The notes under the pieces were generated by a model. That model had not been told where the DNA came from, did no database searches, and saw only the letters and a list, made by a program, of their open reading frames with translations. Shown here piece after piece: positions 20,528-45,495 of a stretch of DNA of 64,000 nucleotides. This stretch comes from an uncultured candidate division Zixibacteria bacterium (GTDB taxonomy: Bacteria; Zixibacteria; MSB-5A5; GN15; FEB-12). Positions within the stretch are counted from its first letter, which is position 1. Each line of letters begins with the position of its first letter. The DNA is taken from the NCBI GenBank assembly GCA_963806185.1, contig CAWDXE010000007.1, positions 96,001 through 160,000 of the forward strand, written 5' to 3'. Position numbers and translations under genes: made by a program.

Positions 20528-21580
20528 ATGTTCCTCGATGACGAACTGAAGGATCTCTTTGAAGCACCCAAAGAACTGCTTATTGAAAGGCCGTTTGCCA
20601 ATCGCAGACACGTAGTGATACTCGGTGCGGGTGCTAGCAAGCAGGCATTTCCAAATGGAGATGCTGCTGGCAATCGCATCCCGCTTCTCGACGAATTAGT
20701 AGAGACCATCTGTCTAGGCGGCGTCCTAGGACAGTCGCACATTGCGTGGAAGGGCCTAAATTTCGAGGCGGTCTATAGCAAGCTACACCAAGCCGATCCG
20801 AACTCAAGTGTTCTCAAAGCGATCGAAGGACGCATTCGTGAGTACTTTGGGGGCTTTTCTTTGCCAAACACAGCTTCACTATACGACTTTCTCGTAGTAT
20901 CGCTACAGCCTAAGGATTTAATTGCCACCTTCAACTGGGATCCGTTTCTTCTCGAAGCGTACGAAAGGAATGACGGCTTTGTCCCTTTGCCGCAGATCGT
21001 CCACTTGCATGGATGTGTTGCGTTGGGCTATTGTTCGGAACACCGAGTTTATGGTCGCGTTGGAAGGGCGTGCCCTACCTGCGGTTCTAGACTCGCGCCT
21101 ATGTCGCTGTTATACCCCGTTGAAAAGAAGAACTACGCGGCCGATCCACTAATTAAGGATCAGTGGAATATCTTACGGCGCGCCCTGTCAGAGGCCTATA
21201 CCGTAACGATTTTTGGCTACGGCGGGCCCAAGACAGATCGTGAGGCGCTGGAAATGCTCAAACGTGGGTGGAACACGGGGAACAAGCGAAGTTGGGAGAC
21301 TAGCGAAATCATCGACATTCGCAATGAATATGAATTACGTAACTTCTGGAACAAGTCCGTCAAGAATCATTCATTCATTTATACGGAAGACTATTTCTCT
21401 TCTAATATCGCGCGTCATCCACGCCGAAGTTGCGAGGCATTGTACATCCCGAAGATTTACGGTAGACTGGTTGAGGACTTCCCATTGCCAAGAGTCGAAT
21501 CTCTTCAAGACCTGCACGAAGCAGTACAAGCTCATGTTTCTGCTGAGCAGCGACTTGCGAGGACCAAGTCGTCGGTGTAG
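20528..21580 (+). CDS. SIR2-like (SIR2_2) domain protein
   Basis: VILGAGAS, TFNWD, HLHG, CxxH...CxxC and IFGYG. Confidence 0.8.
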   Translation: MFLDDELKDLFEAPKELLIERPFANRRHVVILGAGASKQAFPNGDAAGNRIPLLDELVETICLGGVLGQSHIAWKGLNFEAVYSKLHQADPNSSVLKAIEGRIREYFGGFSLPNTASLYDFLVVSLQPKDLIATFNWDPFLLEAYERNDGFVPLPQIVHLHGCVALGYCSEHRVYGRVGRACPTCGSRLAPMSLLYPVEKKNYAADPLIKDQWNILRRALSEAYTVTIFGYGGPKTDREALEMLKRGWNTGNKRSWETSEIIDIRNEYELRNFWNKSVKNHSFIYTEDYFSSNIARHPRRSCEALYIPKIYGRLVEDFPLPRVESLQDLHEAVQAHVSAEQRLARTKSSV

Positions 21581-25995: not shown

Positions 25996-26801
25996 CTTGT
26001 AACCCATTACAATGTAGTCATTTCGACTTGTTCTCGGGCTGAAGGCTTCTTTGGGCTCCTCCGCCGATCAGACTTATGGAATTTTTGCGGATTGATGTCT
26101 GCCCAGAAGGGGGAGAGATTCCTCCTCTCAACTCACACTGCTGATTGAGTTCCTTTGGCACGGTAACAGTCGATCAAATGGTCGGTCGGTTTATTGACCT
26201 CTCTGTACTTCCCGTTAGAACCCATTGAAGTGCTCAAGAATCGGGCAACGTGGATTGCCCCACACCTGCTCGCTATCTCAATACTCGATCCTCTCAATTG
26301 GCGGAACGCGGCATTGTCACGTGATGCCGCTGAGACGAAAAGATGGTTCGAACGGATAGCTGTCCTTGGGCGCGAAACAATATTGGGAGTTGCCAAATCC
26401 TGCACAGGGCGGTACCGCCCTTTTCCAAGCGTACCTCAAGAGAAATACTAATATGAGGGCAACAAACGCGCGATTTAGAATCGATCACCAGCGGGTTCGA
26501 AGGGTTTGTACTCTACGTTTCGCGACAAACTGGACGAAAACTCAGATTGAATTCGGTCTGAATTTCAAGTGGCGTGGAGCACCGCGACAATCAATCCGCC
26601 TGGTATCTGTGCTCACCCAAATTGCCCGATGGCAGCAGTTCAATGCGCCTGGAGAGATGCGATGCGATCTCCACTATCACTTCGGGCGAATGAACTGTGG
26701 GGCGATGGGCAGCCTTGCAGTCTTGACATTCAGATTCTCACAGCATTTATTTAATGAATAGAATTTTCAGGAATGGCGCTTCGAGAGGAGAGTCTGCCGG
26801 G

Positions 26802-28124
26802 ATGGGTAAAGTTCGAAGGAAATCAGCAATTCCAGTTGAAGAAGAGGGGCATCCCCACTTAAGTGAACACCAATCGGCATTCGACAATGCGCTGAGGCAA
26901 TTTGACCGGGCGGCTCACATTATCAATTTGTCCCCGGATCAGATCGCGATGATTAAGGAGCCTCGCAAGATTGCGCAAGTGGAACTTCCCGTCCGCATGG
27001 ACGACGGCCGTATTCGTTTATTTACCGGCTATCGTGTTCAGCATTCTGTCGCCCGCGGACCGGCAAAGGGCGGCGTGCGCTTCCATCCGCAGGTGACACT
27101 TGACGAAGTCAAGGCGCTGGCATTCTGGATGACGTTCAAGTGTGCGACGATCGGCATCCCGATGGGCGGAGGCAAAGGCGGCGTGGTGGTCGATCCGCGG
27201 CAACTTAGCGATGGTGAGTTGGAGCGCCTCTCGCGACGATACTTCGCAGATTTGATCGACATGTTCGGTCCCGATCGGGATGTCCCAGCTCCCGATGTTA
27301 ACACCAATCCCCAGATCATGGCCTGGTTCATGGATACATACTCAATGCACTTCGGCGGCGACTATCTGCCCGCAGTCGTCACCGGCAAACCACTGGAGCT
27401 GGGCGGGTCGGAAGGGCGCGGTTCGGCGACGGCACAGGGCATGGTGTTTTGTGTCGTGCGTGCAGCCGCACACCTCAAGATGAACCTCGCGAAAGCGTCC
27501 GTAGCTATCCAGGGGTTTGGTAACGCAGGATCCCATTCTGCGCTTCTTCTTCACGATCAAGGATGCACGATTCAGGCAATTTCGGATATTGATGGCGCCT
27601 TCTACAATCCCAAAGGTATCGACCCTAAGATGGCCATCACCTATCTGGCAAAGCACAAATCCTTGAAAGGATTCCATACGCAGGCAGAAGTGGAGAGTAT
27701 CACCAATCCGATGGATCTGCTTGAATTGCCCGTTGACATCCTCATCCCTGCCGCCCTTGAGAACCAGATTACCGCAAAGAACGCATCCAAAATCAAGGCG
27801 AAGATTATCGCCGAGTGCGCCAACGGTCCATGCACACCGGAAGCGGATGATATTCTGGAGAAGAAGAAGACATTCGTCATTCCCGATATTCTCTGCAATG
27901 CCGGCGGAGTCGGAGTCTCATACCTGGAATGGGTCCAAAATCGAATGGGATATTATTGGACCATCGAGAATGTCCAGAAGGATTTGAAACAGATGATGGA
28001 CCAAGCGTTTGACGTCGTACTTGAGACATCACTCAAACACAAGGTGCCAATGCGGACGGCAGCCTTCGTTGTCGCCATTCAGCGAGTTGCCCGAGCCGCC
28101 GAATTACGGGGGCTATACGCCTGA
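26802..28124 (+). CDS. gdh: Glu/Leu/Phe/Val dehydrogenase (likely NAD-type glutamate dehydrogenase)
   Basis: GPAKGGVRF, GGGKGG, DVPAPDVNT, VTGK, QGFGNAG and ANGP; GAGGAG RBS. Confidence 0.93.
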   Translation: MGKVRRKSAIPVEEEGHPHLSEHQSAFDNALRQFDRAAHIINLSPDQIAMIKEPRKIAQVELPVRMDDGRIRLFTGYRVQHSVARGPAKGGVRFHPQVTLDEVKALAFWMTFKCATIGIPMGGGKGGVVVDPRQLSDGELERLSRRYFADLIDMFGPDRDVPAPDVNTNPQIMAWFMDTYSMHFGGDYLPAVVTGKPLELGGSEGRGSATAQGMVFCVVRAAAHLKMNLAKASVAIQGFGNAGSHSALLLHDQGCTIQAISDIDGAFYNPKGIDPKMAITYLAKHKSLKGFHTQAEVESITNPMDLLELPVDILIPAALENQITAKNASKIKAKIIAECANGPCTPEADDILEKKKTFVIPDILCNAGGVGVSYLEWVQNRMGYYWTIENVQKDLKQMMDQAFDVVLETSLKHKVPMRTAAFVVAIQRVARAAELRGLYA

Positions 28125-28208
28125 CCTGGAATGAATGTCGAGGCAGATCGAAGCGAGTTACGGCTGATTTGACGACGGTCCGGTCCCGTGGATCCGTCCG
28201 GTGCGTTT

Positions 28209-29069
28209 ATGACTTGCTACTTCGTCTCTGATCTCCACGGTTCAATCGCCCGATATCAGAAACTCTTTGCCGCGATCCGGAAAGAAAAACCACAAGCGGT
28301 GTTTTGTGGCGGCGATCTGTTGCCGACAGGGCCGAAGGCACAGTCTTGGTCGTCCAGCCATTACCGCAACTTCGTGCATGATTTCCTCGCCCCCGCCTGC
28401 CTGGAGTTGAGAAGCGCAGTGGGGAATGCCTATCCGCGTATATTCATCATTCTCGGCAACGATGATCCCAAATCTCAGGAACCGTCGTTGTTGGATGGCG
28501 TCGAATGCGGTCAATGGGAGTATGTTCACGGCCGACGCGTTGCCTTCGGTGATTACCACGTGATGGGCTATAGTTGCGTACCGCCGACCCCTTTTCTACT
28601 TAAAGACTGGGAACGATACGATGTGTCACGGTTTATCGACGCCGGCTGCGTGTCGCCGGAAGAAGGTCGCTATTCTGTCGAAGTATCGCCTGGGGAGAAG
28701 AAATACTCGACTATCCAGGCAGAGCTTGAGAGTCTAGCCATAGGTTTCGATTTAGCCCGAACGATCTGCCTTTTTCATTCGCCGCCTTACCAATCCCACC
28801 TTGATCGCGCAGCACTTGACGGACGGATGGTAGACATGGCGCCGCTCGACGTTCATGTCGGAAGTATTGCCATACGGAGATTTATTGAAAAGCATCAGCC
28901 ATTCCTCACGCTTCATGGGCATGTACATGAAGCGGCCCGCCTGACGGGCTTCTGGCGCGATCAGATCGGCCGCACGGTGATGTTGACGGCGGCACACGAT
29001 GGCCCAGAGCTGGCTCTGGTAAAATTTGATCCCGAGAATCCTGCTGCGGCCGTGCGGGAGTTGCTCTAG
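28209..29069 (+). CDS. Calcineurin-like metallophosphoesterase
   Basis: SDLHG, GGDL, GNDD, HSPP and LHGHVHE. Confidence 0.9.
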   Translation: MTCYFVSDLHGSIARYQKLFAAIRKEKPQAVFCGGDLLPTGPKAQSWSSSHYRNFVHDFLAPACLELRSAVGNAYPRIFIILGNDDPKSQEPSLLDGVECGQWEYVHGRRVAFGDYHVMGYSCVPPTPFLLKDWERYDVSRFIDAGCVSPEEGRYSVEVSPGEKKYSTIQAELESLAIGFDLARTICLFHSPPYQSHLDRAALDGRMVDMAPLDVHVGSIAIRRFIEKHQPFLTLHGHVHEAARLTGFWRDQIGRTVMLTAAHDGPELALVKFDPENPAAAVRELL

Positions 29070-29076
29070 TTGGCCA

Positions 29077-32000
29077 TCACTTGTGCCCGAGCGGCAGACG
29101 GCGGGCCGGATCGGTCACGGCGTCGATCTTCGCGGCGAATGATGTATGTGCAGCAATGTCCTCGTCTGTCACGATGTGGACGTCAAGCAGGCCGCCCGTC
29201 CGATGGCCGGTATGCAAGTAGTTGACTTCATCCAGGCAAAGACTCCAACCGCTCAGCCAGGATAGCAGCATCTCCCTTTGGCACGTATCGCCCGCGAAAT
29301 GAATGAGAAGATCGATGTCGCTTGCCGGGCCTGCCGTGGCGTTCTTGCTGCTGCCAAATATGTACATGGCCTTGACACCGAATCGCTCTGCGTCCAGTTC
29401 AGACGAGATCCTTTCGGCCACCCGCAAGCGCCAGCGCCAAGGACTTTCCTGCTCCTCTTGATGCAATGGCTGATACACGGTCCCTTCTGCAGGCTGGCTC
29501 TTGGGCTGCGCTAAGAGTCCGATGGCCTCCTCTTGATCAGCATTCAGGAGTATTTGTAGTATCCGCCCTCCGGTAGCCTGCGGCACATCTATCACACGAA
29601 CGACATTTGCCAGCGACTCAAACTCCGGCAGGAGTTGACTCAGCATATTAGGTGATTCGGTGAAAAATGTTTCGTTGAACACATTGACCGGGTCATCGGG
29701 GTACAAAGGAAGATACCTGATATTCGCCTCCACCAGATCCTGGAAGAAATGCGTGCCGAACGAGAGGTCCGGAAGATAGTTTCCTTTTTTGCGCGCTACT
29801 TCAATCAGGCACGATGTATTGCTGACATCGGAGTAGGTAACACTGACGCCGAGCTTAATATCGCCGCGACTGCCCCAGCGCCCGGGACCGATCAATATGA
29901 ACTGTCGTTTCGGCAGCAATTTGTTCAACCGTCCCACTGCGCGTCCGACCGCAAGCAGTTGCTGACGGTCTGGAATCTCACCGTATTCCAGCGGATCGAC
30001 GTACACGATGTGCGTAATGTCAGGCACCCGGCCGTTGGAAATGTACTTGTTGGCCGTAAACACAATGTCCTTCGACGGCACACCCCGGGGAATCGGTGTC
30101 GAACTGCTTCGTTTGGAATAGCTCTGCGGACGACATTGGAGCAGATAGAAATCGGTACCGTCAGACGCAAACTCGATATCCACCGGCGTCCCAAACGTTT
30201 CTTGCAGCAGTTTAAGAATGGCCTGTATGCGTTTGATAAACGTTGTCTGCGTCAACATTCCTTCGAATGTCACCAACATCTGCCCCTCTTGCAAATCCAT
30301 ACCGGCATACGAGAGAGCATGACTGCGGTCTCCCTCAATCATCGACACCATGTCAGCAAGGTTGGGAATACTGTACCCCGATAACCGAAGCACGTCGGCG
30401 ACCGGTACTGTCTCAAACGCTCTGGTCCTGAGATTGATGAGATCGATGAAATGAGGTGAGTAGCGGATTTGCTCATCGAGCGACACATTGACGCGTAGTC
30501 CTGGTTGACCCGGAGCTACGAGAATCGGGTAATCATCAGTGAGACGATCCACCGCCCGGGTGCCCAGTCCGGGTACCAGGCGAATCAGACCGTCCTCACG
30601 TCTGATACGAGGTGACCATCTGAATTCGTTGTTGCTGAACGCCACACCTGCGAATGCCGGCATGAAATAATCACCGACCGTGATACCGACGACCTCCTGG
30701 ATCATGATGCCCATTTCCTCGTTGAAATCCAGTAGTCCGCGCTCAACTCTATATTCGACAGGATCGGGACCAAATGTGGATGCGTAAACTTCTGCAATGG
30801 CATCCTTCAAGGCATCCAGCCTCTCCTGCTTTGTGCCCTGGTTAGCAAGAAACAGGCTTTTGTATTTCCCCGAAAAAGCGGAGCCCATCCGATCCTCGAG
30901 CAAACTGGAACTACGGACGATGATGGGTACAATGCCCAGATCATCAAGCGCGACCGACAAACCCTGTACGATTTCCGGAGGGAAATTTGAGTGCTTGAAG
31001 GTCTGTACGATGTGAGGGTATTCGAGTCGGATCTGATCGAGTTCCTTGTATTTCTGCTCTACGATTTCCTCAAGATTGTTGTGGTACATGAAGCTTAACA
31101 GCGCATCGGACGTGATATACCACGTTCTAGGTACCTTGATGTCCGCCAACAAAGGTGAATCCTGCCCAGCCCGTTTCAGAATCTTTGCCGCCACATACAA
31201 GCCCGCACTTTTTCCGCCCAAATGGCCGCTGCTCTCCGCAGTGAAGATCACGTAGGGGAGAAGATCGTAAAAATCAGCCACCGTGACGAACCGCTTAGCA
31301 ACATCGACAAACTGCACCTGCTCGCTAAAGAAGCGCCTGACCAGCGCCGCGCTGACGCCGCGCTGAGTGGGACTGCGCGGCTCCATCTCCTGGGGAGCTA
31401 TACGCCGATACCGGCGAATGGCCTCCGCGACCTCGGAAAGGGTAAGATTCCGATTAAGCGCACGCACGAGAAATCGTTGTTTATCTTCTTGTATCCGCTT
31501 TTGTATGAATAGCAGTATTTCGGCATCACCAATTTCATCGGAAGCGATCTTGAATATCTCGTCGCTGAGGAAATCGTTTGACGTTGTCAGCATTTTGCGA
31601 TGAAGTGGAACGTTGGAGTCCCCGTCGGCCCCCTCAGATTCTTTGGTGGTACCAGCCGTGTAATACTGCTCCAGCTTCTTGGCGGCCTCGACACCGCACC
31701 AGCACAAGTGATTGAGAAGTTTGTGAGAAATACTGAAAAATAAGTCCTGATCGGTTTGGCGTAACATATCGACAACGCCCCGCCACTCCGGTCGTTGTTG
31801 TTTAGACACACTAGCCTGAACGGCCTGCCAGTCTTGATAAACCGCCCTCATCTGTCGATACATCAGGAAGTGACTCAATCGGTCGGCGATTGAGTGAATC
31901 AGGCGAGTTTCCTCTTTGAGAAACGGGCCGTGATCCACCGATTCCTTCTCCGTCGTATAATAAACGCTAATGCGTCCGATTACTTTCTCCTGAATTAAGA

Positions 32001-32259
32001 TGTCGGCACTCTGTACCCACGCGGATCGAGCAAATCCCGGTGGATAATACCTGGCATCGTTGAGGACAATCTCGGCAACACAAACCTCGGGATACTGCCA
32101 TCCCTGCGGAATTGCGTCAACGATCTGTCGGCAGACTTCCGCTACCGTGAGATTCTGCTGGTTCAGGATCTCCTCGACACTATAGAGGCAGTTGAGCTCC
32201 TTTGCCCGTTCCGACAAAAACCAGATCAGATCATCAAGGGATTTGCCCTCGTCAGCCAT
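29077..32259 (-). CDS. PPDK_N (PEP/pyruvate-binding ATP-grasp) protein with N-terminal GAF-like and C-terminal nucleotidyltransferase domains
   Basis: ERAKELNCLY...WQYPE...GPFLKEE; GGKSAGL, VRSSSLLED, FSGKY, DIEFA, LLQCRP; SFGTHFFQDL; FGSS...SDIDLL...LDVH. Confidence 0.85.
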   Translation of the reverse strand: MADEGKSLDDLIWFLSERAKELNCLYSVEEILNQQNLTVAEVCRQIVDAIPQGWQYPEVCVAEIVLNDARYYPPGFARSAWVQSADILIQEKVIGRISVYYTTEKESVDHGPFLKEETRLIHSIADRLSHFLMYRQMRAVYQDWQAVQASVSKQQRPEWRGVVDMLRQTDQDLFFSISHKLLNHLCWCGVEAAKKLEQYYTAGTTKESEGADGDSNVPLHRKMLTTSNDFLSDEIFKIASDEIGDAEILLFIQKRIQEDKQRFLVRALNRNLTLSEVAEAIRRYRRIAPQEMEPRSPTQRGVSAALVRRFFSEQVQFVDVAKRFVTVADFYDLLPYVIFTAESSGHLGGKSAGLYVAAKILKRAGQDSPLLADIKVPRTWYITSDALLSFMYHNNLEEIVEQKYKELDQIRLEYPHIVQTFKHSNFPPEIVQGLSVALDDLGIVPIIVRSSSLLEDRMGSAFSGKYKSLFLANQGTKQERLDALKDAIAEVYASTFGPDPVEYRVERGLLDFNEEMGIMIQEVVGITVGDYFMPAFAGVAFSNNEFRWSPRIRREDGLIRLVPGLGTRAVDRLTDDYPILVAPGQPGLRVNVSLDEQIRYSPHFIDLINLRTRAFETVPVADVLRLSGYSIPNLADMVSMIEGDRSHALSYAGMDLQEGQMLVTFEGMLTQTTFIKRIQAILKLLQETFGTPVDIEFASDGTDFYLLQCRPQSYSKRSSSTPIPRGVPSKDIVFTANKYISNGRVPDITHIVYVDPLEYGEIPDRQQLLAVGRAVGRLNKLLPKRQFILIGPGRWGSRGDIKLGVSVTYSDVSNTSCLIEVARKKGNYLPDLSFGTHFFQDLVEANIRYLPLYPDDPVNVFNETFFTESPNMLSQLLPEFESLANVVRVIDVPQATGGRILQILLNADQEEAIGLLAQPKSQPAEGTVYQPLHQEEQESPWRWRLRVAERISSELDAERFGVKAMYIFGSSKNATAGPASDIDLLIHFAGDTCQREMLLSWLSGWSLCLDEVNYLHTGHRTGGLLDVHIVTDEDIAAHTSFAAKIDAVTDPARRLPLGHK

Positions 32260-34009
32260 ACAGTATTACCCCGCGAGCTGTGCGTCCATCGGCTTTGATT
32301 AGCAGAGGTCTTTCAGATTGCACGTGCCTAACAAAATGAGACTCTGATACGATTCGCTGTTGATTTACCCATCGCCAATCAATAGCGTACTTGCCGCTAT
32401 GGGCGACAGAGAAATAGAGTACTTGAAAGCTGGAGAGATTGTGGAAGAAGTGTGATCCCTGGCTCAGCTCTACGTCAAAAGAAGGTAGTGTCGCTTCAAC
32501 TACAACCCTGGCCCCCGATACGTTGGACCACGCAACCGGAATACCCAGCCACGGTTCAGAGCTTCCCCATCGACCAAAACCGATGAGCGCATAGGGGCGA
32601 CCCTCATCCAGAAGCTGACTGTTTACCCTGTCGATTTCAGCGGCAATTTGCGGCGAATGTGCGGCATCAAATGTCTCCGGTTTGACGAATACAATATCCG
32701 AGACGGAATCGATAATTCCGTTGCCCATGGCACGTTCGGTCGCGACGATTGCATTCTGTGCCGATAGTTCTGCCATCGTCACATCCACCACGGCCGCAGA
32801 CACCACCATCGGACGCACCTGAAGAAACCCGAATCGGCCGTGCGACGATCTATCGGGTTCGAGCGTCGCCGCAAACTCGATCTCGACGGGACTCCCGACT
32901 CGCTCTTCGCACAGCTTCAAGAGCTGCTTCACCAATCGATTGAGCGGAATGAGTTCAGATTTGAGAATCGGTCCGAAATCCAATAGCCTGGGGCCCGCAA
33001 CGTTGATTCCACTCACGATTCTTTCCTCGCCAGGTACGAAGGTTGAGGCGACCCCCACCAAGGTCCCGTCCTCTTCCGCCTCGCGAATGCCTGTCTGAAC
33101 AAGGTACTCGGTTTCTCGAATCGGATCGTACTCTGGCGGTTTCCCCATGTTCACCGCCCAGAATTGCGTCTGCGACTGATCCAGCAGTTCTTCAAAATTG
33201 CCATACGGGGGCATGGCCTTCGGAAACGCAGGCGAATACCCGTACGAAATGCCGCCATCAACAATCGTCTTGCCCAGCCCCAGCGCGAGATTCACGACGC
33301 CATCCAACGGTTTTGCGTGTCCGGATGGATAGTAATTATGTGAACGCGCTACCCCGGAGATGTTCGGGTAGAATCGATCATCGTGTCTTAGTCCGACGAC
33401 CTCCTGAATGATCACGGCCATCTTCTCGGACTCGATCGACTTGCCGGTAGCTCGGAAATACGTCTTTGCCTTGCGAAAAAACGTCGATGCGTAGACAAAT
33501 CGGATGGCCTCAATCAACTTGCGGAACCGTGTATCGGCATCGGCCTGATTATTCGGTATCATCTTGGTGTGGTAAACCCCTGCGAAGGGTTCGAACAGCG
33601 CATCCTCAAGCAGACTTGAAGAGCGGACCGCCAGCGGTGTGTGAACAAAATGGACAAGCGCCCCGAGATCCCCAACCAACGTTGCGGGAAGAGAGCCTTG
33701 CTGGAACGCGGTCGCGATCCGGTTGTCGTGTGCGTCGGAAAGAGCGACTTCGTACAGATTGTTCGATCGCATGAACTCATCGAAGCAATCCGTGGAGAGA
33801 ACCGTCAGCCTTGGCACCGCGACGTCGATCTGGTCATCGCGAAACGCATCGACGTGCTCTGCCAGCACCCCCCGCATCAACGCCAGCCCTTGCGCCTTGC
33901 CACCGATTTCACCGGTTCCTATACGTGTAAATGTCTCTGTGCCGTCAAAAAAACGACGATCAAACGCCGGCAGACTGTTGAGGGGGATGCGGAAAGAGTC
34001 GGCAGTCAA
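32252..34009 (-). CDS. Stand-alone PPDK_N (PEP/pyruvate-binding) protein with His domain
   Basis: GGKAQGL, AVRSSSLLED, FAGVY, EIEFA, LQVRP, GRWGS and SQGSHFFHNL. TTG start after a GAAGGAG RBS. Confidence 0.85.
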   Translation of the reverse strand: MTADSFRIPLNSLPAFDRRFFDGTETFTRIGTGEIGGKAQGLALMRGVLAEHVDAFRDDQIDVAVPRLTVLSTDCFDEFMRSNNLYEVALSDAHDNRIATAFQQGSLPATLVGDLGALVHFVHTPLAVRSSSLLEDALFEPFAGVYHTKMIPNNQADADTRFRKLIEAIRFVYASTFFRKAKTYFRATGKSIESEKMAVIIQEVVGLRHDDRFYPNISGVARSHNYYPSGHAKPLDGVVNLALGLGKTIVDGGISYGYSPAFPKAMPPYGNFEELLDQSQTQFWAVNMGKPPEYDPIRETEYLVQTGIREAEEDGTLVGVASTFVPGEERIVSGINVAGPRLLDFGPILKSELIPLNRLVKQLLKLCEERVGSPVEIEFAATLEPDRSSHGRFGFLQVRPMVVSAAVVDVTMAELSAQNAIVATERAMGNGIIDSVSDIVFVKPETFDAAHSPQIAAEIDRVNSQLLDEGRPYALIGFGRWGSSEPWLGIPVAWSNVSGARVVVEATLPSFDVELSQGSHFFHNLSSFQVLYFSVAHSGKYAIDWRWVNQQRIVSESHFVRHVQSERPLLIKADGRTARGVILYG

Positions 34010-34182
34010 TCTATCGCTCCTTCGGGATGCTAATCCTTGATAGACTAGGTATCTTATAAGTAACGTGCGACATACCCTAAGTCAAGAAATGATTGCCTGT
34101 CGAGTCGTTCTTGTCGATTTCTACTCTGATCACTTGTACGAAGCGTCCGAGCATGGTATGATATTTATTAAGGGTGTTCGTT

Positions 34183-34836
34183 ATGTTAAAGCGGATCATA
34201 AAAGTCATCATTATAGATCACCAGTGCCTGGTACGACAGGGTTTGGCAAGTCTTTTGAATACCGATGGGAATTTTCAAGTTGTCGGTGACTTCGCCTCCA
34301 GCCCGGAGGCGTTTGATCAGGTAAGCCTGGTCAAGCCGGACGTAGCCATCATCGATGTACAAATGCCGGGCCTTGACGGCATCAGTATTGGCCGACGGCT
34401 GCGGCAGATCAGCCCGACAACAGAGATCGTGTACCTGACCGCGAATCATTCTGACGATCAATCCCGGGATGCGTTTGAGTCTGGCGGACGGTGTTATTTG
34501 CTCAAGGACTGTTCATTCGAGGAATTGGCACTCGCTGTGCGAAAGGCAGCCGACGGCGACTACTACCTCACCGGTCCTTCATCGTCAGAGATGATCGCCG
34601 AGTACGTAAAGCCGCTCCTCAGCGCTCAGCGGCCGGGAGGGCAAATGACATTGCGCGAGAGGGAAATCGCTCGGCTGTTGGCGGACGGTTACTCTACCAA
34701 AGAGGCGGCTGACGTGCTCAATATCAGTGTTAAGACGGCAGAGGCACATCGTACTTCTATCATGAAGAAGCTGAACGCCAAAAATGTGACTGATATTGTC
34801 AAGTATTGCATCCGCAATCAAATCATTGAGACATGA
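34183..34836 (+). CDS. NarL/FixJ family response regulator (REC plus LuxR HTH)
   Basis: IIDVQMPGLDG (phospho-Asp), YLT, YLLK and LREREI...ISVKTAEAHR. Confidence 0.93.
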   Translation: MLKRIIKVIIIDHQCLVRQGLASLLNTDGNFQVVGDFASSPEAFDQVSLVKPDVAIIDVQMPGLDGISIGRRLRQISPTTEIVYLTANHSDDQSRDAFESGGRCYLLKDCSFEELALAVRKAADGDYYLTGPSSSEMIAEYVKPLLSAQRPGGQMTLREREIARLLADGYSTKEAADVLNISVKTAEAHRTSIMKKLNAKNVTDIVKYCIRNQIIET

Positions 34837-34843
34837 CGGCTTC

Positions 34844-36416
<1,573 letters not shown>

Positions 36417-36440
36417 GTCCTGTTTTCGAGCATTACACCA

Positions 36441-36471
36441 AAAACGGAGTGGTATCACACCACTCCGTTTT
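36441..36471. terminator. Bidirectional-type terminator hairpin after gdhA
   Basis: AAAACGGAGTGG-TATCACA-CCACTCCGTTTT. Confidence 0.75.
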
Positions 36472-36534
36472 GTATGTTTGGTTTTTGGTCTGCGTCAATG
36501 TGCGGGTATAACCGGGAAGCTGAGACTCGACAAG

Positions 36535-39500
36535 ATGCTCACGTTCAACGATCTCCTGGCAGAGCACGGTTACGTAAACCGCTTCAACGAATTTCAAGGA
36601 TTGATGCAGTTTCGCGTGCGCGAAATTCTGCTCGCCTCCAGCTTGTACGACTCGTTCATCTTTGAGCAAGATGGTCGTCTCTCGGAAATGCTCCTTTCCG
36701 AGTACCTTGATCTCAATCTTAGCCAGGCCCCTGGCATCACCCGCGTATCGACCGGTGGCGAGGCGCTCGCACGGATTGTCGGCCCTAACCGCTTCGATCT
36801 GATTATCACGACGATGAATTTGGCCGACATGACAGCGGTCGACCTCGCCAGACGGATCCGCGCCGAGCGACCGAATCTTCCGGTTATTGCCCTGCTATAC
36901 GATACCCGTGAATTTGCCGAACTCACGACTTACCACGATATTGCGGTGTTCGACAAAGTATTTATCTGGCAGGGAGATTTCCGAACCCTGATGGCCGTCG
37001 TCAAGTACGTCGAGGACCGCCGAAACGTCGAACACGACACTGCAGCAGTCGGTGTGCAGTCAATAATCCTCATCGAAGACAACGTCAACGCGTACTCCTC
37101 GTTCCTCCCCATAATCTATACCGAGGTCGTTAAACACACGCAGCAAGTTATGGCTGAGAGCTTGAACCTCTCGCATAAACTTCTTCGCATGCGGGCGCGG
37201 CCGAAGATCTTGCTGTGCAGTTCGTTCGAGGAAGCGTGGGACTTCTTCAAGCGGTATGAGAGTTGTGTGCTCGGAATCATCTCCGACATAGAGTTCCCCA
37301 GAGACGGTCAACTTGACCGGGAAGCCGGCCTTCGCTTCGCAGCCCAGGTACGGGCAGTGCACTTCGACATACCGATTCTGCTGCAATCCGATTCTCCAGA
37401 TTTCGAGGAAGCGGCCCGTGAGATCGGGGCCGGATTTCTACTAAAACGATCGCCCCGACTGCTCCAACAATTGCGCGAATTTATGGCTGCGCATTTTAGC
37501 TTTGGTGAATTCATTTTCCACTTGCCCGATGGACGTGAGGTGGCGCGCGCCAATAGCCTGCTTACGCTCGAGGAACAACTCCGGTTGGTTCCCGATGAAT
37601 CAATCCGCTTTCATGTCGAGCGAAATCACTTTTCCAATTGGCTCAAGGCTCGTACGGAATTTCTGCTGGCGGATCGCCTTCGTCCACAGCGAGTCTCCGA
37701 CTTTCCCTCTATTCAAATGTTGCGCGCCGATCTCGTGCGTTCGTTGCAGGAGTTCCGCCAGGAACGAAGTGTCGGCATCATCGTTGATTTCGATCGCAAG
37801 TCGTTTGATCCTCTGTCTTCCTTTGCCCGGATTGGCTCGGGCTCGCTCGGGGGCAAGGCGCGAGGGATGGCTTTTGTCAATGGGCTTTTGAAAAACTTCA
37901 AGCTCCATGATCGGTTTGATGGCATCCGGCTCCAAGTGCCGTCGGCAGTCGTGCTGGCCACGGACATATTTGATCAATTTATGGACGGCAACAATTTGAG
38001 CAAGATCGCCATAGAATCGACCGACGATACTCGCATACAGAGCCATTTCCGCTCGGCTCAACTTCCGGATTCCGTAGTGCGTGAACTTGCCGAATTCGTA
38101 GATATCGTCCAATATCCGTTGGCGGTCCGCTCTTCAAGTCTGCTGGAGGATTCCAGATTCCAGCCCTTTGCGGGGATCTATGACACCTTAATCCTGCCAA
38201 ACAATCATCCTGACCCGTCTGTTCGTTTGAACGAGCTGCTGGACGCCATCGTCCGGGTGTACGCATCAACATTCAGCGCGGCCGCCAAGACGTACATGGC
38301 CACCACCGTGTTTCGCCTCGAAGAGGAGAAGATGGCGGTCGTTATTCAGCGCCTGGTGGGCTCCGTCCACGAATCAAGGTTCTACCCCAATTTTTCCGGT
38401 GTCGCGCGATCCTATAATTTCTATCCGCACCCGCCCATGTCTCCGCAAGACGGCGTGGCCATTGTCGCGCTCGGTCTGGGCGCCGCCGTGGTCGACGGTG
38501 ATCTCTCTGTCCGATTCTGTCCCCGATATCCCAGGCATCTGTTTCAGTTGTCCGGCATCGAGGATGCTCTGCGATACTCGCAACGGGAATTCCTGGCGCT
38601 GGAACTCAACGACACAAGTGAAGCGGAGCAAAAGACTGGCGCGACGCACCTGACGCACTGCGGACTGGATCAGGCCGAGCGAGATGGAACCTTGTGGCAT
38701 GTTGTCTCCACGTATTCAAGGGAAAACGACGCTATCTCCGACGGACTGTCCCGAACGGGGGTGAGACTGGTCACCTTCGCGCCGATCCTGAAGAATAGTT
38801 TGTTTCCCCTGGCCGAAATCCTGAATGTTGTGCTCGATATGGGAACCTGGGGAACGGGCACTCCGGTCGAGATCGAATTCGCGGTCAATATTCCGTCATC
38901 CCCGGCCGATCGCAGCGAGGTTGCGGTTCTCCAAATGCGGCCGCTCGTCACCACACGGGAGTTCGAAGAACTGTCCATTGGTGATGTTAACCCCGACGAT
39001 GTCATATGTTTTAGCGATCGCGTTCTCGGCCACGGGATACTTGAGACCATCCAGGACATAGTGTTGGTCGACCCGGATTGCTTCCGGCGAGACCGCAGCA
39101 CCGATGTAGCTCGCGAAGTAAGCAGATTCAACGCGGAACTGGTGGCCGCCCGGCGGCCGTACCTGTTGATCGGGGTCGGACGTTGGGGCTCTGCCGATCC
39201 GTGGCTGGGTATTCCGGTATCCTGGGAACAGATTTCGGGTGCGCGGGCAGTGGTTGAATCCAGTTTCCGGGATTTTGACGTTACGCCGTCTGAGGGAAGT
39301 CACTTCTTTCAGAACATGATTTCATCACGCATCGGATATTTTACCGTCAATGCCAGTCAGACCTGTGGGTACGTTGACTGGGCCTGGCTCCGACTTCAAC
39401 CTGCGTTTGAGACTCGCCACTACGCTCGCCACATTAGACTGGATTCGCCGACTATCATCAGAATGGACGGACGCACAGGTCGCGGTGTCATCTACAAACC

Positions 39501-39558
39501 AACGTTTCGTATACCGGCACTGGCGCAGCCTGTGTACCCACTGAACTCTCAGGAATGA
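36535..39558 (+). CDS. REC-REC-PPDK_N (PEP/pyruvate-binding) protein with His domain
   Basis: Pseudo-REC (DLIITT), REC (LIEDN...IISDIEF...LLQS...LLK), HVERNHFSNWL, GGKARG, VRSSSLLED, LQMRP and SEGSHFFQNM. Confidence 0.87.
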   Translation: MLTFNDLLAEHGYVNRFNEFQGLMQFRVREILLASSLYDSFIFEQDGRLSEMLLSEYLDLNLSQAPGITRVSTGGEALARIVGPNRFDLIITTMNLADMTAVDLARRIRAERPNLPVIALLYDTREFAELTTYHDIAVFDKVFIWQGDFRTLMAVVKYVEDRRNVEHDTAAVGVQSIILIEDNVNAYSSFLPIIYTEVVKHTQQVMAESLNLSHKLLRMRARPKILLCSSFEEAWDFFKRYESCVLGIISDIEFPRDGQLDREAGLRFAAQVRAVHFDIPILLQSDSPDFEEAAREIGAGFLLKRSPRLLQQLREFMAAHFSFGEFIFHLPDGREVARANSLLTLEEQLRLVPDESIRFHVERNHFSNWLKARTEFLLADRLRPQRVSDFPSIQMLRADLVRSLQEFRQERSVGIIVDFDRKSFDPLSSFARIGSGSLGGKARGMAFVNGLLKNFKLHDRFDGIRLQVPSAVVLATDIFDQFMDGNNLSKIAIESTDDTRIQSHFRSAQLPDSVVRELAEFVDIVQYPLAVRSSSLLEDSRFQPFAGIYDTLILPNNHPDPSVRLNELLDAIVRVYASTFSAAAKTYMATTVFRLEEEKMAVVIQRLVGSVHESRFYPNFSGVARSYNFYPHPPMSPQDGVAIVALGLGAAVVDGDLSVRFCPRYPRHLFQLSGIEDALRYSQREFLALELNDTSEAEQKTGATHLTHCGLDQAERDGTLWHVVSTYSRENDAISDGLSRTGVRLVTFAPILKNSLFPLAEILNVVLDMGTWGTGTPVEIEFAVNIPSSPADRSEVAVLQMRPLVTTREFEELSIGDVNPDDVICFSDRVLGHGILETIQDIVLVDPDCFRRDRSTDVAREVSRFNAELVAARRPYLLIGVGRWGSADPWLGIPVSWEQISGARAVVESSFRDFDVTPSEGSHFFQNMISSRIGYFTVNASQTCGYVDWAWLRLQPAFETRHYARHIRLDSPTIIRMDGRTGRGVIYKPTFRIPALAQPVYPLNSQE

Positions 39559-40368: not shown

Positions 40369-42132
40369 TCATATGGAGATCCTGAACTTGCTCACCATGC
40401 TCTGCAATCCCTCGGCCTGGCGATTGAGTTGTTCGGCCGCTGCGGCCGATTGCTCGGCTCCCGCTGACGTTTCCTTGGTCACCGACGCGATATGTTCCAC
40501 ATTCTTGGAAATCTGCTCGGCTGCAGTGGACTGCTCTTGTGAAGCGGTCGCGATCTGAGCGATCATATCCATCACCCGCTGGCTCATGCTAACAATCTCG
40601 GCCAAGCTAGAACCGGCCTTGTCGGCCAGATCCCGCCCCTTGTCGACTTCTTGAATACCTGACTCCATCGAGTTAACGGCTTCCTCGGTGTCGGTCTGAA
40701 TCCCCTTGATCATGCTGGTGATCTCTTTAGTTGCCTTGCCCGTCCGCTCGGCCAACTTCCTGACCTCATCGGCCACGACGGCAAAGCCGCGGCCCTGTTC
40801 GCCGGCCCGGGCTGCTTCGATGGCGGCATTTAGGGCCAACAGGTTCGTCTGGTCGGCAATATCATCGATGACGCCAATAATCTCGCCAATCTGATCGGCT
40901 GACTTGGCCAGCTTGCCGATCGACTCAGCCGATTGGCGCACTACCTGGGCGATCTTCTGCATGCCTTGAATAGTGTCAGAGACGATCTGCCCCCCCGAAG
41001 TGGCTGTGCCCGAAGCCGAGCGGGCCGTATCAGTGGCCTCCCCGGTGTTTCTCGAAGACTCCAAGATGGTCGCCGACATCTGTTCGATAGCAGTGGAGAC
41101 CTGGGCCACCTGGTCGGCTTGGACTTTGGCTCCGTTGCTCATCTGCTCGGATGAACTGGAGATCTCATTGGCCGCCGACACGAGCTCCCGGGCGTTGTCG
41201 GTGAGCTGCCTGATCATCCCGCTCAAGTTCTGCAGCATAGTCACGAATGCCTTGCCCAGAGCGTCGTGCTCGCTCTTGGGCTCGACTCGTACCGTCAAAT
41301 CGTTGGCCGCAATACTCTCCGCCGCCTTGGCCATCGTCTTCATATAGTCGATCAGTGCCCGGAACGCATCGGCCAGTACGCCGATCTCGTCTCGAGAGTG
41401 AATATCGACGGTATTGCGGATGTCCCCGATCGCCACGGCCTTGGCCGCCGCAGTCAACCTTCGCATAGGTCCGATCAACTTGGCGGATAAGAGCACGCCG
41501 AGACACAACGACAACGCGAGTGTCACAATACCGATTGTCACGAGCGTCGTCATTCCGGAACTGATCCTCTCTCGGGCCGTGCCCTCCAAGCCGGAGTTCA
41601 TCGTGGCCGCGTCACTGACCGTGCGGTCAATCGCCGCCCGATGCTCATCGTACAGCGGGGCCAGTCGATTCTCTAATAGGGTCCGGGCGGTCGTTACGTC
41701 GCCGCTCATCACCGCCGGAATGACGTCGTTTTGTGCGATCTCATAAAATCTTTGAGCCGGCTGGTACGACTGCTCCACCAGAGTTCGCTTCATCGGTCCC
41801 TCGGGAAGTGCCTTCTGCCAGAACTCGTGTCTGGAGGCGTACTCGGTCTGCAGTTGTTTCAACCGATCGACGAGCGGCGGAATTGCCTGACGCTCCGTGG
41901 CGTACACGATCTGGTAGGTCACCAAATATGACTCGAGGATGTACTCGGGCGGTGGCAGGACGTCAGCCACCAGGTCCTTACCCATCACGATTTCCTGATA
42001 CAACGGGCCGTTTACCTGCAGTGTCCTCGTCATGCTGATCGAAAAGATGCCGAACGCGATCAGTCCCACGACCGGTATAGCCAACAGCACGATCAGCTTT
42101 GACCGAAAAGACAGGTTATTTAGGAATTCCAT
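40369..42132 (-). CDS. Methyl-accepting chemotaxis protein
   Basis: Two TM helices, periplasmic [16 protein letters not shown] and [35 protein letters not shown]. Confidence 0.95.
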
Positions 42133-42202
42133 CGACGTACCTCCATACTGAAGCGTGAGCTTGTTTGCCGTTTTCTGGGCGGTCTTTCCAAGGGTCTCCC
42201 GG

Positions 42203-43645
42203 CTAGAACCCGCACGTAAACTCAACCGCACCGGAGAATCGCCGGTCGCGAATGTCTCCGTGCGAATTCGCAAAACTCTTCTTGTCCGACCAGTCGTATC
42301 GCGTCTCCAATAGGCAGGTCAGCCCCTCAACGATCACCAGCGAAGGCGCGATCAGAATCGCCTTCCACTCCTGGGCGACTCCGGTTCTGGAACCATCTTT
42401 GTCGTTGAGGTAGTCGAGACGAGCGGTCACGCCATAACGGGAGTCGGGCCGCCAATGAGCCGTGACTAATCCGCCCTGCCAGCGGCCGTCACGGCCGTCC
42501 CCCAGAGCATCCTGCTCCGTGCCCAGCTGTAATTCACCCCCAATCGTCCATTGTTCAGTCGGTGTGTACGCGGCGTCCCAGTCGATGACTGTTCGCGGCC
42601 CGGTCGTACTTCCCGCCACTTCCGGCCCCGTGATCGCCGAAAGGCCCCACGCAAAGCTGGGTGAAAGTGTGACTCCCAGCCGCGTGCCAATCGTCTTCCC
42701 ATTATTATTGTCCGGTGTGGCGTCCCAGCCATTGACTATATAGAGTTTTGTGTCGAACCATGAATTTGGCTTAGCGGATAGCATTAACCCGGTGAGATTG
42801 GTGGGCAGGCCGTACACGAAGACCAGGGCGTGGGAGTACTGATACATATCGGGAGCGTCCAGCAGCTCAAAGCCAATCGGGGCATTGAATTTTCCAAAAG
42901 TAACCTGCCACGTCGCCGACCGACCCAAATCAAATGTCAGATAACCTTGTTCCAGGTCCGTGCCAAAGTGTCCATTCCCATCGGCCATCAATTCAATATC
43001 AGCGCGGACCTTGGCCCGCTCACCCAACGACCTGCTGATATCCACCTCGACCTGATCGAGACCAAAGGAGTTTTCCCGATCGCCGTCGTCATACGCCTGG
43101 CTGGCATCAACAAACCCCGATAGCGCCAGATTGCTTACGATTGGCGACGGTCTACCGGCCGTCGAATTTTCCACGCCTGCCGACCCGGCGTCGGAAGCCA
43201 TCGACGGAACTCCAAACTCCTCAAGGGAGGCGATCTGTGATCCGGCATTGCGGCTGGTATCCTGACGGAGGTTACGGCATTCGGCCCGCAGGTACTCGAT
43301 ATCGGCGAGCAATTGCGGCCAGAGCGAATCCGAAGATATCCTCGGGCTCTCGACGGGCATCTTCATGGCCTCGACCTCGGCGCGAAGTTGCGCGATCTGC
43401 GCTTCGAGTGCCTGCACATCCACGCGGTCAGGCGTCGCCGCGCTGTCCGCGCGTGACCGAAACATCGACTCCAAGCGAGCCACGGACTCTTTGCGGGCCT
43501 TGCATTCACTTTCGACCTGGGCTTTGAGACGTGACTCCATTCTGTCCACCGCCTCAAGCAGCTGGGCGAAGTCCTGCGCCCGACAGCATCCCGCAACCAG
43601 GAGGACGACCGACGCGTACAGGCCGATTCTCTTCAGTTTGTCCAT
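42203..43645 (-). CDS. Outer-membrane porin (BBP2/DUF1597-like) with N-terminal coiled coil
   Basis: Signal peptide; [22 protein letters not shown]...DNN and a terminal Phe. Confidence 0.8.
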
Positions 43646-43904
43646 ATTCCCTTCCCACTTTGCTGTCGGCAGGCTCGGCCAGCGACAAGATTTTGCTGAT
43701 CGTAACAGAAATCGCCAGGCAGCGGGAACGCGGCTCAATGCCCCCATGGAAATGTCAGACCGTGTGCGACCGCGCTCCCGCCGCCCGACCAGCAAATGGT
43801 TCACTATCCCTCTTTCGGGAGTCTTACTGAAAGGGCGAGGGCCAGCCAAGGGTCACCCAAAGGCTACTCCGACTGACCTCAGCCTGAATTGTGGGATGGA
43901 CGGG

Positions 43905-44894
43905 CTACTCGTTGGTACCGCGAAGAACGGTAACGAGATCCGACGTTTTGCTGGAAATGCCGAGTTTTCTGCGGATCCGCTTGCGGGTGTTGACGACCGT
44001 AGCGGGGGAGATGCTCAGAGCAGAGGCGATTTGTTTCGACGAATAACCGGAAGAGATAAGGCTGCAAATCTGCAATTCGCGTGGCGTCAGATTTTTCCTT
44101 TCCAATCCGATCTCGCCGCCATGCTTCCGACTAATCGACTGCAACGCTTCCTCGAGGGCGGTGACAACGGGCCGAAGCTCGCTATCCGCCCGGTTGCGCA
44201 GCGCTTCCAATAATGGACTCAGTTGCAGCTCGATGTTCGTCAGAATGGTAGTGCGAATATCGTGGGCCTCCAGATCGATCTGATAGAGCAGTTCCCGCAG
44301 TGCGATGTTCTTTTCGGTGAGCTCCTTCGCGACGGTTTGCAGCCTGAGGTTCGCCTCTGCCAGACCCTCGCGTGACTTGGCCAGCTCGGTCACGTCGCGA
44401 AACGTAAACAGAAACGGACTGCCGGGAAGACCGGTGTCCTTCACGTCGGTCAGCACGCACACCTCTCGGCCGTCGGCAGCCAGCAATTTCGCCGGCACGT
44501 CGCGCAAATCGCGATGACTTTGCACCGACCGAAGCCAGTCGGTGCCCTCGCCGCCCAGAAGCTCAAAAATGGTCGGCATTCGCTTGTACTCCTCGTACGA
44601 GCGGCCGCAAAATCCCTCGGCGTTGGGGCACACAAAGGTGATGTTCCCTTCCTCATCGGTGAGAAAAGCGACATCTGAAATCGCCTCCAGAATCACCCGA
44701 TGCAATCCCTCTGAATCCGACAATAGACGGTTCCCGTGACACTGCTTCAGAAGGATGTTCAGGATTCCATTGACGGCAGCCGACAGGCATGCCTGCGCGC
44801 TGTCAGGGGTATCGTCCGACTCGGTGCTGGCAGGCTGGTCATACGTCACGTCCGCCAATGCTCGTGGTGAGTTCGGCAAGTCATTGGCCGCCAT
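43905..44894 (-). CDS. PAS plus LuxR-HTH transcriptional regulator (start uncertain)
   Basis: LEAISDVAFLTDEEGNITFVCP (PAS), KNIALRELL coiled coil and LTPRELQICSLI...IRRKLG. The 5' part of ORF 43905..45341 looks non-coding. Confidence 0.8.
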   Translation of the reverse strand: MAANDLPNSPRALADVTYDQPASTESDDTPDSAQACLSAAVNGILNILLKQCHGNRLLSDSEGLHRVILEAISDVAFLTDEEGNITFVCPNAEGFCGRSYEEYKRMPTIFELLGGEGTDWLRSVQSHRDLRDVPAKLLAADGREVCVLTDVKDTGLPGSPFLFTFRDVTELAKSREGLAEANLRLQTVAKELTEKNIALRELLYQIDLEAHDIRTTILTNIELQLSPLLEALRNRADSELRPVVTALEEALQSISRKHGGEIGLERKNLTPRELQICSLISSGYSSKQIASALSISPATVVNTRKRIRRKLGISSKTSDLVTVLRGTNE

Positions 44895-45495
44895 AGACTG
44901 ACGGGCCGACTCGCCCACCATCCAGCCCCCGGTCCGACAGCCAAGCCCAATTCCGGTCACGCGTTGACCGGCCGGCCAGCTCTTGGCGAGAGTGTTCAGG
45001 TGCTCGAGCAATTCCGCGGCGATTGCCTTACCGGCCTCGCAATGGACTCGAGTAGAGGACGGCAGCGACCGCCGAACGAGGTTCAGAGGGCCGTTGGCAT
45101 TGAATCGTTTGGCTGCAGACTTGGTTGTTGATGCCACAAGTGCTTCCGGCGTTGGAGATGGTTGTTTACGGACAGTATCGGCCGATCTGTTGAAAAGTTG
45201 AACAGGCCAAAAGAGAAAAATAAGCCGGCTAATCATTATGGTTGTTGTGAGTCTCTGGCGCACTATCGGATAGTTCCGTGATTGGGGCGGCCCGGAGTGA
45301 ACTTGCGCGACGCCCGATTCCTCTTTCATGAAGTCTGCCACTGTGGTAGCGGTGAGTACGACGACAAACCCGGGCTACTTTCAATCCGGTGTCAACCGAA
45401 TTGAGGGGCGAGTAAGCAACAAGCGCGGGACCGACATGGGACTGGACCTGATCGGCTATGTGACGGCTGACATCTTTGCCATACTAGCGCCTGAA

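Follow-up and report, generated by a model that had tools for sequence, protein, structure and literature searches.

Why does an uncultured candidate division Zixibacteria bacterium encode three barrel-less PPDK-like proteins side by side with two glutamate dehydrogenases (GDHs), and on what do they act? The genes lie at positions 26,802 to 39,558 of a 64,000-nucleotide stretch (the window, whose coordinates are used throughout; positions 96,001 to 160,000 of contig CAWDXE010000007.1) from a genome that is 82% complete. The three paralogues, here called A (29077..32259, minus strand, 1060 residues), B (32252..34009, minus strand, 585 residues) and C (36535..39558, plus strand, ~1007 residues, numbered from 36478), combine an ATP-grasp domain with a C-terminal domain carrying an invariant His. 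An original prediction, drawn from the letters alone, had placed three open reading frames at just these coordinates and taken them for a phospho-His relay serving receiver (REC) domains, GDH or a metabolite; as a whole that interpretation is partly supported. With a probability of about 0.6, judging from structure models and by analogy, we regard the family as His autokinases similar to VadK that bind GDH directly and switch its activity after translation, and A, B and C likely act on GDH in this direct manner rather than signalling through the adjoining regulator. The main new result is a predicted interface between C and the NADP-specific dehydrogenase GdhA.

The gene gdhA (35055..36416, plus strand; NF006929, 761 bits against a cut-off of 536) directly precedes C, and the two products were modelled as a complex from residues 40-482 of the GdhA open reading frame and residues 449-1004 of C (the core), with 50-row alignments paired by locus. 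The pair scored 0.68 and the best of three controls 0.00; of 157 solved complexes, 116 pass the mark used for this score, as do 2 of 215 mismatched pairs, counts that hold only roughly for custom alignments. Separate runs shared at least 70% of their contacts, with a per-residue confidence (pLDDT) of at least 77 for the partners. No solved structure of a family member turned up in structure searches, so a score derived from a memorised structure is unlikely. In the model, GdhA is touched at the DDQ turn, PKGKSDN, GVGGR, GKGL, LIRP, the Asn of GSGNV and NVRRG, which are loops around the mouth of the active-site and cofactor cleft and, we presume, include residues that bind the 2'-phosphate of NADP. 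On the other side, the contacts fall within residues 651-772 of C (38428..38793, plus strand). This stretch is the second, variable half of the ATP-grasp and exceeds the Pfam model by ~60 residues; the His domain (38959..39492, plus strand) makes no listed contact with GdhA. The core of C is thereby predicted to bind GdhA at the mouth of the cofactor cleft, in keeping with the earlier proposal of GDH as a partner. Because the His domain lies outside the predicted interface, control of GDH by binding whose strength would follow the phosphorylation state of the kinase is slightly favoured over covalent modification of GDH.

The second line of evidence is gene neighbourhood. A phylum-wide sample of 80 genomes, in which related genomes are not independent, had the family in 50 and gave 96 matches, assigned to types from length and identity. 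Of these, 72 lay no more than 8 kb from a gdh gene among the matches listed (chance, ~1.4%), a lower bound, as 55 gdh matches lay outside that list; inspection of 13 of the 24 apparent misses found gdh within ~8 kb in 8, which brings the linked matches to at least 80 of 96. The linkage to gdh that the original prediction had proposed to survey is thus far above chance. Among C-type loci (the best 80 of 579), gdhA was found in 60 and any gdh in 62, whereas the A-type loci (the best 80 of 589, many of them short) contained the metallophosphoesterase in 53, a B-like core in 51 and a match to the gdh1 query in 42; the phosphoesterase lay within 3 kb in 42 of the 60 loci with enough flank. A tree of 122 GDH sequences separated the clade of NADP-specific GdhA that precedes C from a 41-member clade (support 0.99) in which the next downstream family gene is B or A in 39 cases. 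The pairing is clade-specific: C goes with NADP-GdhA, whereas the partners of B and A are a third GDH clade and the phosphoesterase. The commonest A-type cassette reads gdh, B, A, then a convergent phosphoesterase gene.

In the window itself, the order is gdh1 (26754..28124) and the metallophosphoesterase gene (28209..29069) on the plus strand, A and B on the minus strand, and then, divergent from these, a NarL-type regulator gene (34174..34836), gdhA and C on the plus strand; the two dehydrogenases, the phosphoesterase and the regulator named earlier were all borne out by profile searches. B lies upstream of A and overlaps it by 8 bases, and A converges on the phosphoesterase gene with a gap of 7 bases. 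By profile matches and the tree, gdh1 belongs to an archaeal-like group, with its catalytic Lys intact, and the linkage between this clade and the family is no more than loose. One related locus (L206) holds the whole cluster of the window plus a gdh of the third clade between B and the regulator, a gene missing from that place in the window. The same contig carries a fourth paralogue (60% identity to A) directly behind a gdh of this third class (G000:C7:869952-873125), and in some relatives B and A are fused into single proteins of 1520-1650 residues. The transferase motif of the fourth paralogue reads DxN, not DxD, and neither B nor the phosphoesterase adjoins this second gdh-A pair (G000:C7:869952-874605). 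A copy of gdh1, 80% identical, stands elsewhere in the genome (G000:C4:423383-424648) with no family genes near; it overlaps a gene that, from its motifs, we take to encode an FAD-linked oxidase-like protein, with presumed multiheme cytochrome-like genes downstream.

What kind of protein is the core? All three paralogues match PF01326 (PPDK_N) in Pfam, with E values of 1.6e-59, 3.9e-33 and 4.8e-37 for A, B and C; B and C are 43% identical, and A is 28-30% identical to either. The motifs GGK, VRSSSLLED, (D/E)IEFA, LQxRP, GRWGS and SxG(T/S)HFF align across them as had been claimed. In the ATP-grasp, K38, R129, E378, Q397 and R399 (B numbering), which are equivalent to the catalytic residues of PPDK, are kept in 145, 145, 144, 143 and 141 of 145 diverse homologues. 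The description of the His as invariant (His837 in A, His520 in B and His942 in C) is borne out: it is present in every A (62/62), B (37/37) and C (88/88) sequence of the locus-derived sets and in 143 of the 145 diverse homologues. Neither the barrel of PEP (phosphoenolpyruvate) utilisers nor the Pfam swivel matched A, B or C, and in a confident structure model of B (pLDDT 94; predicted template-modelling score 0.93) two domains fill all 585 residues and leave no space for a TIM barrel. The NCBIfam PEP-synthase models gave 27-59 bits against cut-offs of 598-740, and HATPase_c and HisKA had no match in the three proteins. By these comparisons and the two-domain model of B, A, B and C are not members of the PEP synthase, rifampin phosphotransferase (RPH) or GHKL kinase families.

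The nature of the His domain was addressed by structure prediction, the check that the original prediction had suggested. Folded alone, the C-terminal domain of B gave a pLDDT of 97, the His beginning a helix that is followed by a strand. Compared with 48,161 chains, this isolated domain had swivel domains as six of its top seven matches, at Z scores of 6.0-7.2: the RPH His domain (5hv1) came first (Z 7.2, root-mean-square deviation 3.1, 111 aligned residues), and the further matches were the PPDK phosphoryl carrier (7.1), the pyruvate-kinase swivel (7.0), PPDK (6.7), a DRTGG protein (6.6) and enzyme I (6.1 and 6.0). A phosphohistidine swivel fold is thus predicted for the C-terminal domain of the family, the domain of B having served as the equivalent of that of C.

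The paralogues differ in what is appended to this core, as had been noticed. B is core only. C begins with a receiver that has no acceptor Asp (REC1, a pseudo-receiver), followed by a canonical receiver (REC2, with E200, D201, D270, S304 and K323) and a helical linker. A carries a GAF-like sensor (residues ~5-136; 31852..32247, minus strand, by sequence comparison), a middle region (136-345) that does not match the N-terminus of C, and, behind the swivel domain, a nucleotidyltransferase domain (29080..29442, minus strand, by Pfam); Atlas searches returned unnamed clusters and weak GAF leads only. The transferase motif G[ST]-x-DxD...D is intact in the A of the window, and among 62 homologues G969, S/T970 and D1026 are kept in all, D981 in 61 and D983 in 59. 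In the phosphoesterase, the motifs DLHG, GGD, GNDD, H and HGHVHE are kept in 45 homologues. The GAF-like sensor of A recurs as the sole sensor of the only HisKA_3 kinase of the genome, whose gene is the first of an operon that also encodes a NarL regulator and an ammonium transporter, and it recurs in HisKA-HATPase kinases contained in five related gdh clusters, where an NtrC-type regulator directly follows three of the kinases and a single receiver follows one. This distribution suggests that the GAF-like domain of A may read a nitrogen signal, and the cluster-embedded kinases could offer REC2 an ordinary phosphate donor. The HisKA_3 operon (G000:C1 912,200-915,500; L082 3494-7441, minus strand) also contains an unannotated gene for an outer-membrane-like protein. 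Other variants of the family include C-like members with one to four copies of a GAF-like sensor ahead of the core (P0315, P0368 and P0370) and a split, highly diverged form (L093, L113, L207 and L208; for example, L207:12812-15973) that consists of a 555-residue core with two His-containing motifs and a separate receiver-receiver protein of ~490 residues, neither of which matches Pfam.

A precedent for a non-GHKL His kinase derived from PPDK, as the original prediction envisaged, exists in VadK (Rv1127c; PMC13400623), a truncated PPDK relative with ATP-binding and His domains and no barrel, which is autophosphorylated on His422 and co-precipitates the enzymes PrpC and PrpD, whose genes (rv1130 and rv1131) stand within a short distance of its own. 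The likeness to our family is one of domain layout, an ATP domain and a His domain without the barrel. VadK also binds the metabolic enzymes that it regulates, post-transcriptionally, and for the family binding of GDH is predicted. The two differ in that the swivel of the family (SxGxHFF, GRWGS) is so diverged that no profile detects it, and in the fusions to receiver, GAF-like and nucleotidyltransferase domains, the several paralogues per genome and GDH as the predicted partner. On this model, the swivel His would be autophosphorylated with ATP, as in PPDK and VadK, and C would dock through residues 651-772 of its ATP-grasp on the cleft-mouth loops of GdhA, switching its activity post-translationally. 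C may be gated by REC2, itself phosphorylated by an ordinary kinase, and A by a nitrogen signal through its GAF-like domain; B and A could act as one unit, in which the nucleotidyltransferase of A would be a writer and the phosphoesterase a candidate eraser. If true, this would extend the VadK principle to a second, sensor-equipped family.

Several observations weigh against this reading. The complex model represents one monomer pair of a hexameric enzyme, its alignments were paired by neighbourhood, and it covers the C-GdhA pair only; moreover, the contact residues of C are less conserved than average (0.58 versus 0.66), the conserved exceptions being P653, L698, N750, R763 and K772. Every swivel match of the His domain has a Z score below 8, Foldseek found no match to this domain at E<=0.001 (best probability 0.66, to PPDK), and the swivel relationship was negative both when hhalign was run on a set of low diversity (29 PPDK-type swivel stretches and enzyme I) and in hmmsearch of PDB sequences, so what supports the swivel assignment is that swivel domains cluster among the best matches of the fold comparison. 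The linkage to gdh is not universal: 18 of the 80 C-type loci (several of them short) have no gdh; six of six short A-like forms (770-790 residues) have none within 10-17 kb, and the same holds for two divergent cores and one Bacteroidales-like C-type member in the stretch inspected. Finally, 10 of the 41 GDHs linked to A or B lack the catalytic Lys, which fits GDH as a sensor or scaffold no less than as a target. The short A-like forms (L197-L199 and L201-L203) are also without the transferase.

This last point bears on the direction of control. GDH, or a dead copy of it, could sense glutamate or 2-oxoglutarate and control the kinase, with the output elsewhere, directed either at another protein or into a nucleotide signal that the transferase would make and the phosphoesterase would remove. 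The GDHs linked to A or B keep their other substrate-binding residues in 38-40 of 40 cases, and an intact full-length gdh is present in the same locus for 7 of the 10 Lys-less GDHs versus 2 of the 31 with the Lys. The pairing thus survives the loss of catalysis, which argues for a physical partnership and keeps GDH alive as a sensor. The cleft of GDH moves on ligand binding, and the predicted docking spans this cleft while leaving the His domain free. However, the GdhA linked to C keeps the catalytic Lys in 67 of 67 cases, A and C have input domains of their own, and the loci inspected did not show a third conserved gene that could serve as output; we consider control in this reverse direction unlikely.

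We also think it rather unlikely that the family are small-molecule dikinases similar to RPH, HpeHI or glutamine kinase, which would pass phosphate from the His to a metabolite of glutamate metabolism for the phosphoesterase to remove. In the fold search, the B model resembled RPH, HpeI, PEP synthase and PPDK (best E for the ATP-grasp, 3e-13), and RPH (5hv1), HpeI (9goj) and related small-molecule dikinases, which share the ATP-grasp and His domain, were its best matches; the tight linkage of the phosphoesterase and the members without gdh neighbours would suit such enzymes as well. The identity is 16-18%, however, and the family has no middle substrate-binding domain of the kind found in RPH and HpeI, B consisting of its two core domains and nothing else. 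The receiver and sensor fusions, together with the predicted docking on GDH, favour regulation.

The relay of the original prediction, in which a non-GHKL histidine kinase would hand phosphate to REC2 or to the NarL-type regulator and so switch transcription, appears quite unlikely. REC2 is canonical, with D270 kept in 88/88 close and 67/79 distant homologues, the sensor of A is typical of histidine kinases, and the split form has its separate pair of receivers. The regulator of the window has an acceptor Asp; in its five orthologues upstream of gdhA, this residue is Asn (four) or Glu (one), making it an unlikely phosphate acceptor, and, going by these alignments, the regulator is likely phosphorylation-independent. 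It is also rarely linked to the family, with matches in 4 of the 80 C-type and 2 of the 80 A-type loci, so that the proposed phosphotransfer to it found no support. A and B have no receiver, and VadK is reported not to act via transcription (PMC13400623). The absence of a recognisable histidine kinase from the window had been part of the argument for a relay. HisKA indeed has no match within the window, but the rest of the genome contains 35, 30 of them over the cut-off, and ordinary kinases are embedded in the five related clusters, so the conclusion drawn from that absence fails.

That the proteins are PEP synthases or PPDKs, as database labels and the PPDK_N domain would have it, is very improbable given the absent barrel, the scores far under the cut-offs, a canonical swivel enzyme (PF00391) encoded separately in 31 of 31 genomes and, in this genome, a true PPDK and an enzyme I outside the window. 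PEP synthase and PPDK share with the family the ATP-grasp catalytic residues and the swivel fold, whereas the family has neither their PEP/pyruvate barrel nor the TSH motif. The true PPDK gene of this genome (G000:C7 ~282,600-285,400) is broken by several frameshifts, which are probably assembly errors. At least 8000 members of the family were scored, with 3330 representatives at 50% identity (E<=0.001), a set that may include true PEP synthases. In many phyla, as in this genome, such proteins stand among gdh genes. The family is commonly mislabelled PEP synthase, which distorts metabolic models, gut Bacteroidales included.

Known regulators of nitrogen enzymes offer partial parallels to direct control of GDH. 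GlnE and GlnD control glutamine synthetase and PII by nucleotidylation, and A resembles them in joining a polymerase-beta-type nucleotidyltransferase to sensing parts in nitrogen metabolism, with a candidate eraser adjoining; it differs in being a minimal transferase on a dikinase scaffold, with no GlnE, ACT or HD match in Pfam. GarA, GltAB-GudB and the GdhA-GdhB-APRTh system of Thermus are GDH-binding regulators, in which a bound protein controls GDH and inactive GDH copies serve as regulatory subunits; their folds are unrelated to this family, and none is known to have a dikinase core. A literature search found no description of the family, within a limited coverage in which subscription journals were sparse and the VadK paper was also missed.

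An older observation may concern the same system. A 1996 study by Baggio and Morrison reportedly found GdhA activity to be affected by trans-acting genes downstream of gdhA. The GDH of B. fragilis undergoes reversible inactivation in vivo. Bacteroidales members of the family are ~990 residues long and carry the same PEP synthase label, and one locus (L194) has a 993-residue C-type gene divergent from gdh. According to PMC7366714, the order in B. thetaiotaomicron is BT_1970 (gdh, plus strand), BT_1971 (catalase, plus), BT_1972 (minus) and BT_1973 (gdh, plus), with BT_1972 labelled 'phosphoenolpyruvate synthase' and 2973 bp long. Its size, label and layout match those of the Bacteroidales members, so BT_1972 likely belongs to the family by this analogy. 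It may be the trans-acting GdhA factor of 1996, although the catalase or other genes could be the factor instead. The predicted interface and BT_1972 together make a 30-year-old observation on GdhA testable. A much broader picture, which we hold possible but doubtful, would make the family a widespread GDH control system and a counterpart of GlnE for glutamine synthetase: gated kinases would clamp the cleft and covalently mark GDH, either with a phosphate that the swivel His donates or with a nucleotide that the transferase of A adds, the phosphoesterase would erase the mark, dead GDHs would sense ligand, and BT_1972 would be the 1996 factor.

The wider nitrogen metabolism of the phylum was surveyed in 81 genomes. 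The central domain of glutamate synthase was found in none of them, so that glutamate would be made chiefly through GDH; PII was found in 23 and glutamine synthetase in all 81. With glutamate synthase not found and PII in 23 of 81, control of GDH may be the main nitrogen switch in this sample. The idea that the family replaces PII was rejected, since PII occurs in 13 of the 50 genomes that have the family and in 10 of the 30 that lack it, as was the idea that it replaces glutamine synthetase, present throughout.

Among homologues, the close ones that carry names are all from Zixibacteria. A sigma-54 motif was not found within the window. Upstream of the locus, an open reading frame of 350 residues (20528-21580, plus strand) contains GAGAS, TFNWD and HLHG and has no Pfam match at E 0.05; it resembles, in our judgement, SIR2-like proteins and is possibly a defence gene. 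Downstream, a PAS-LuxR regulator, a coiled-coil and BBP2 porin protein and a methyl-accepting chemotaxis protein are encoded consecutively (40369-45341, minus strand), followed by genes for two very large, probably secreted proteins of 1930 and 1613 residues (46232-52021 and 55134-59972, plus strand).

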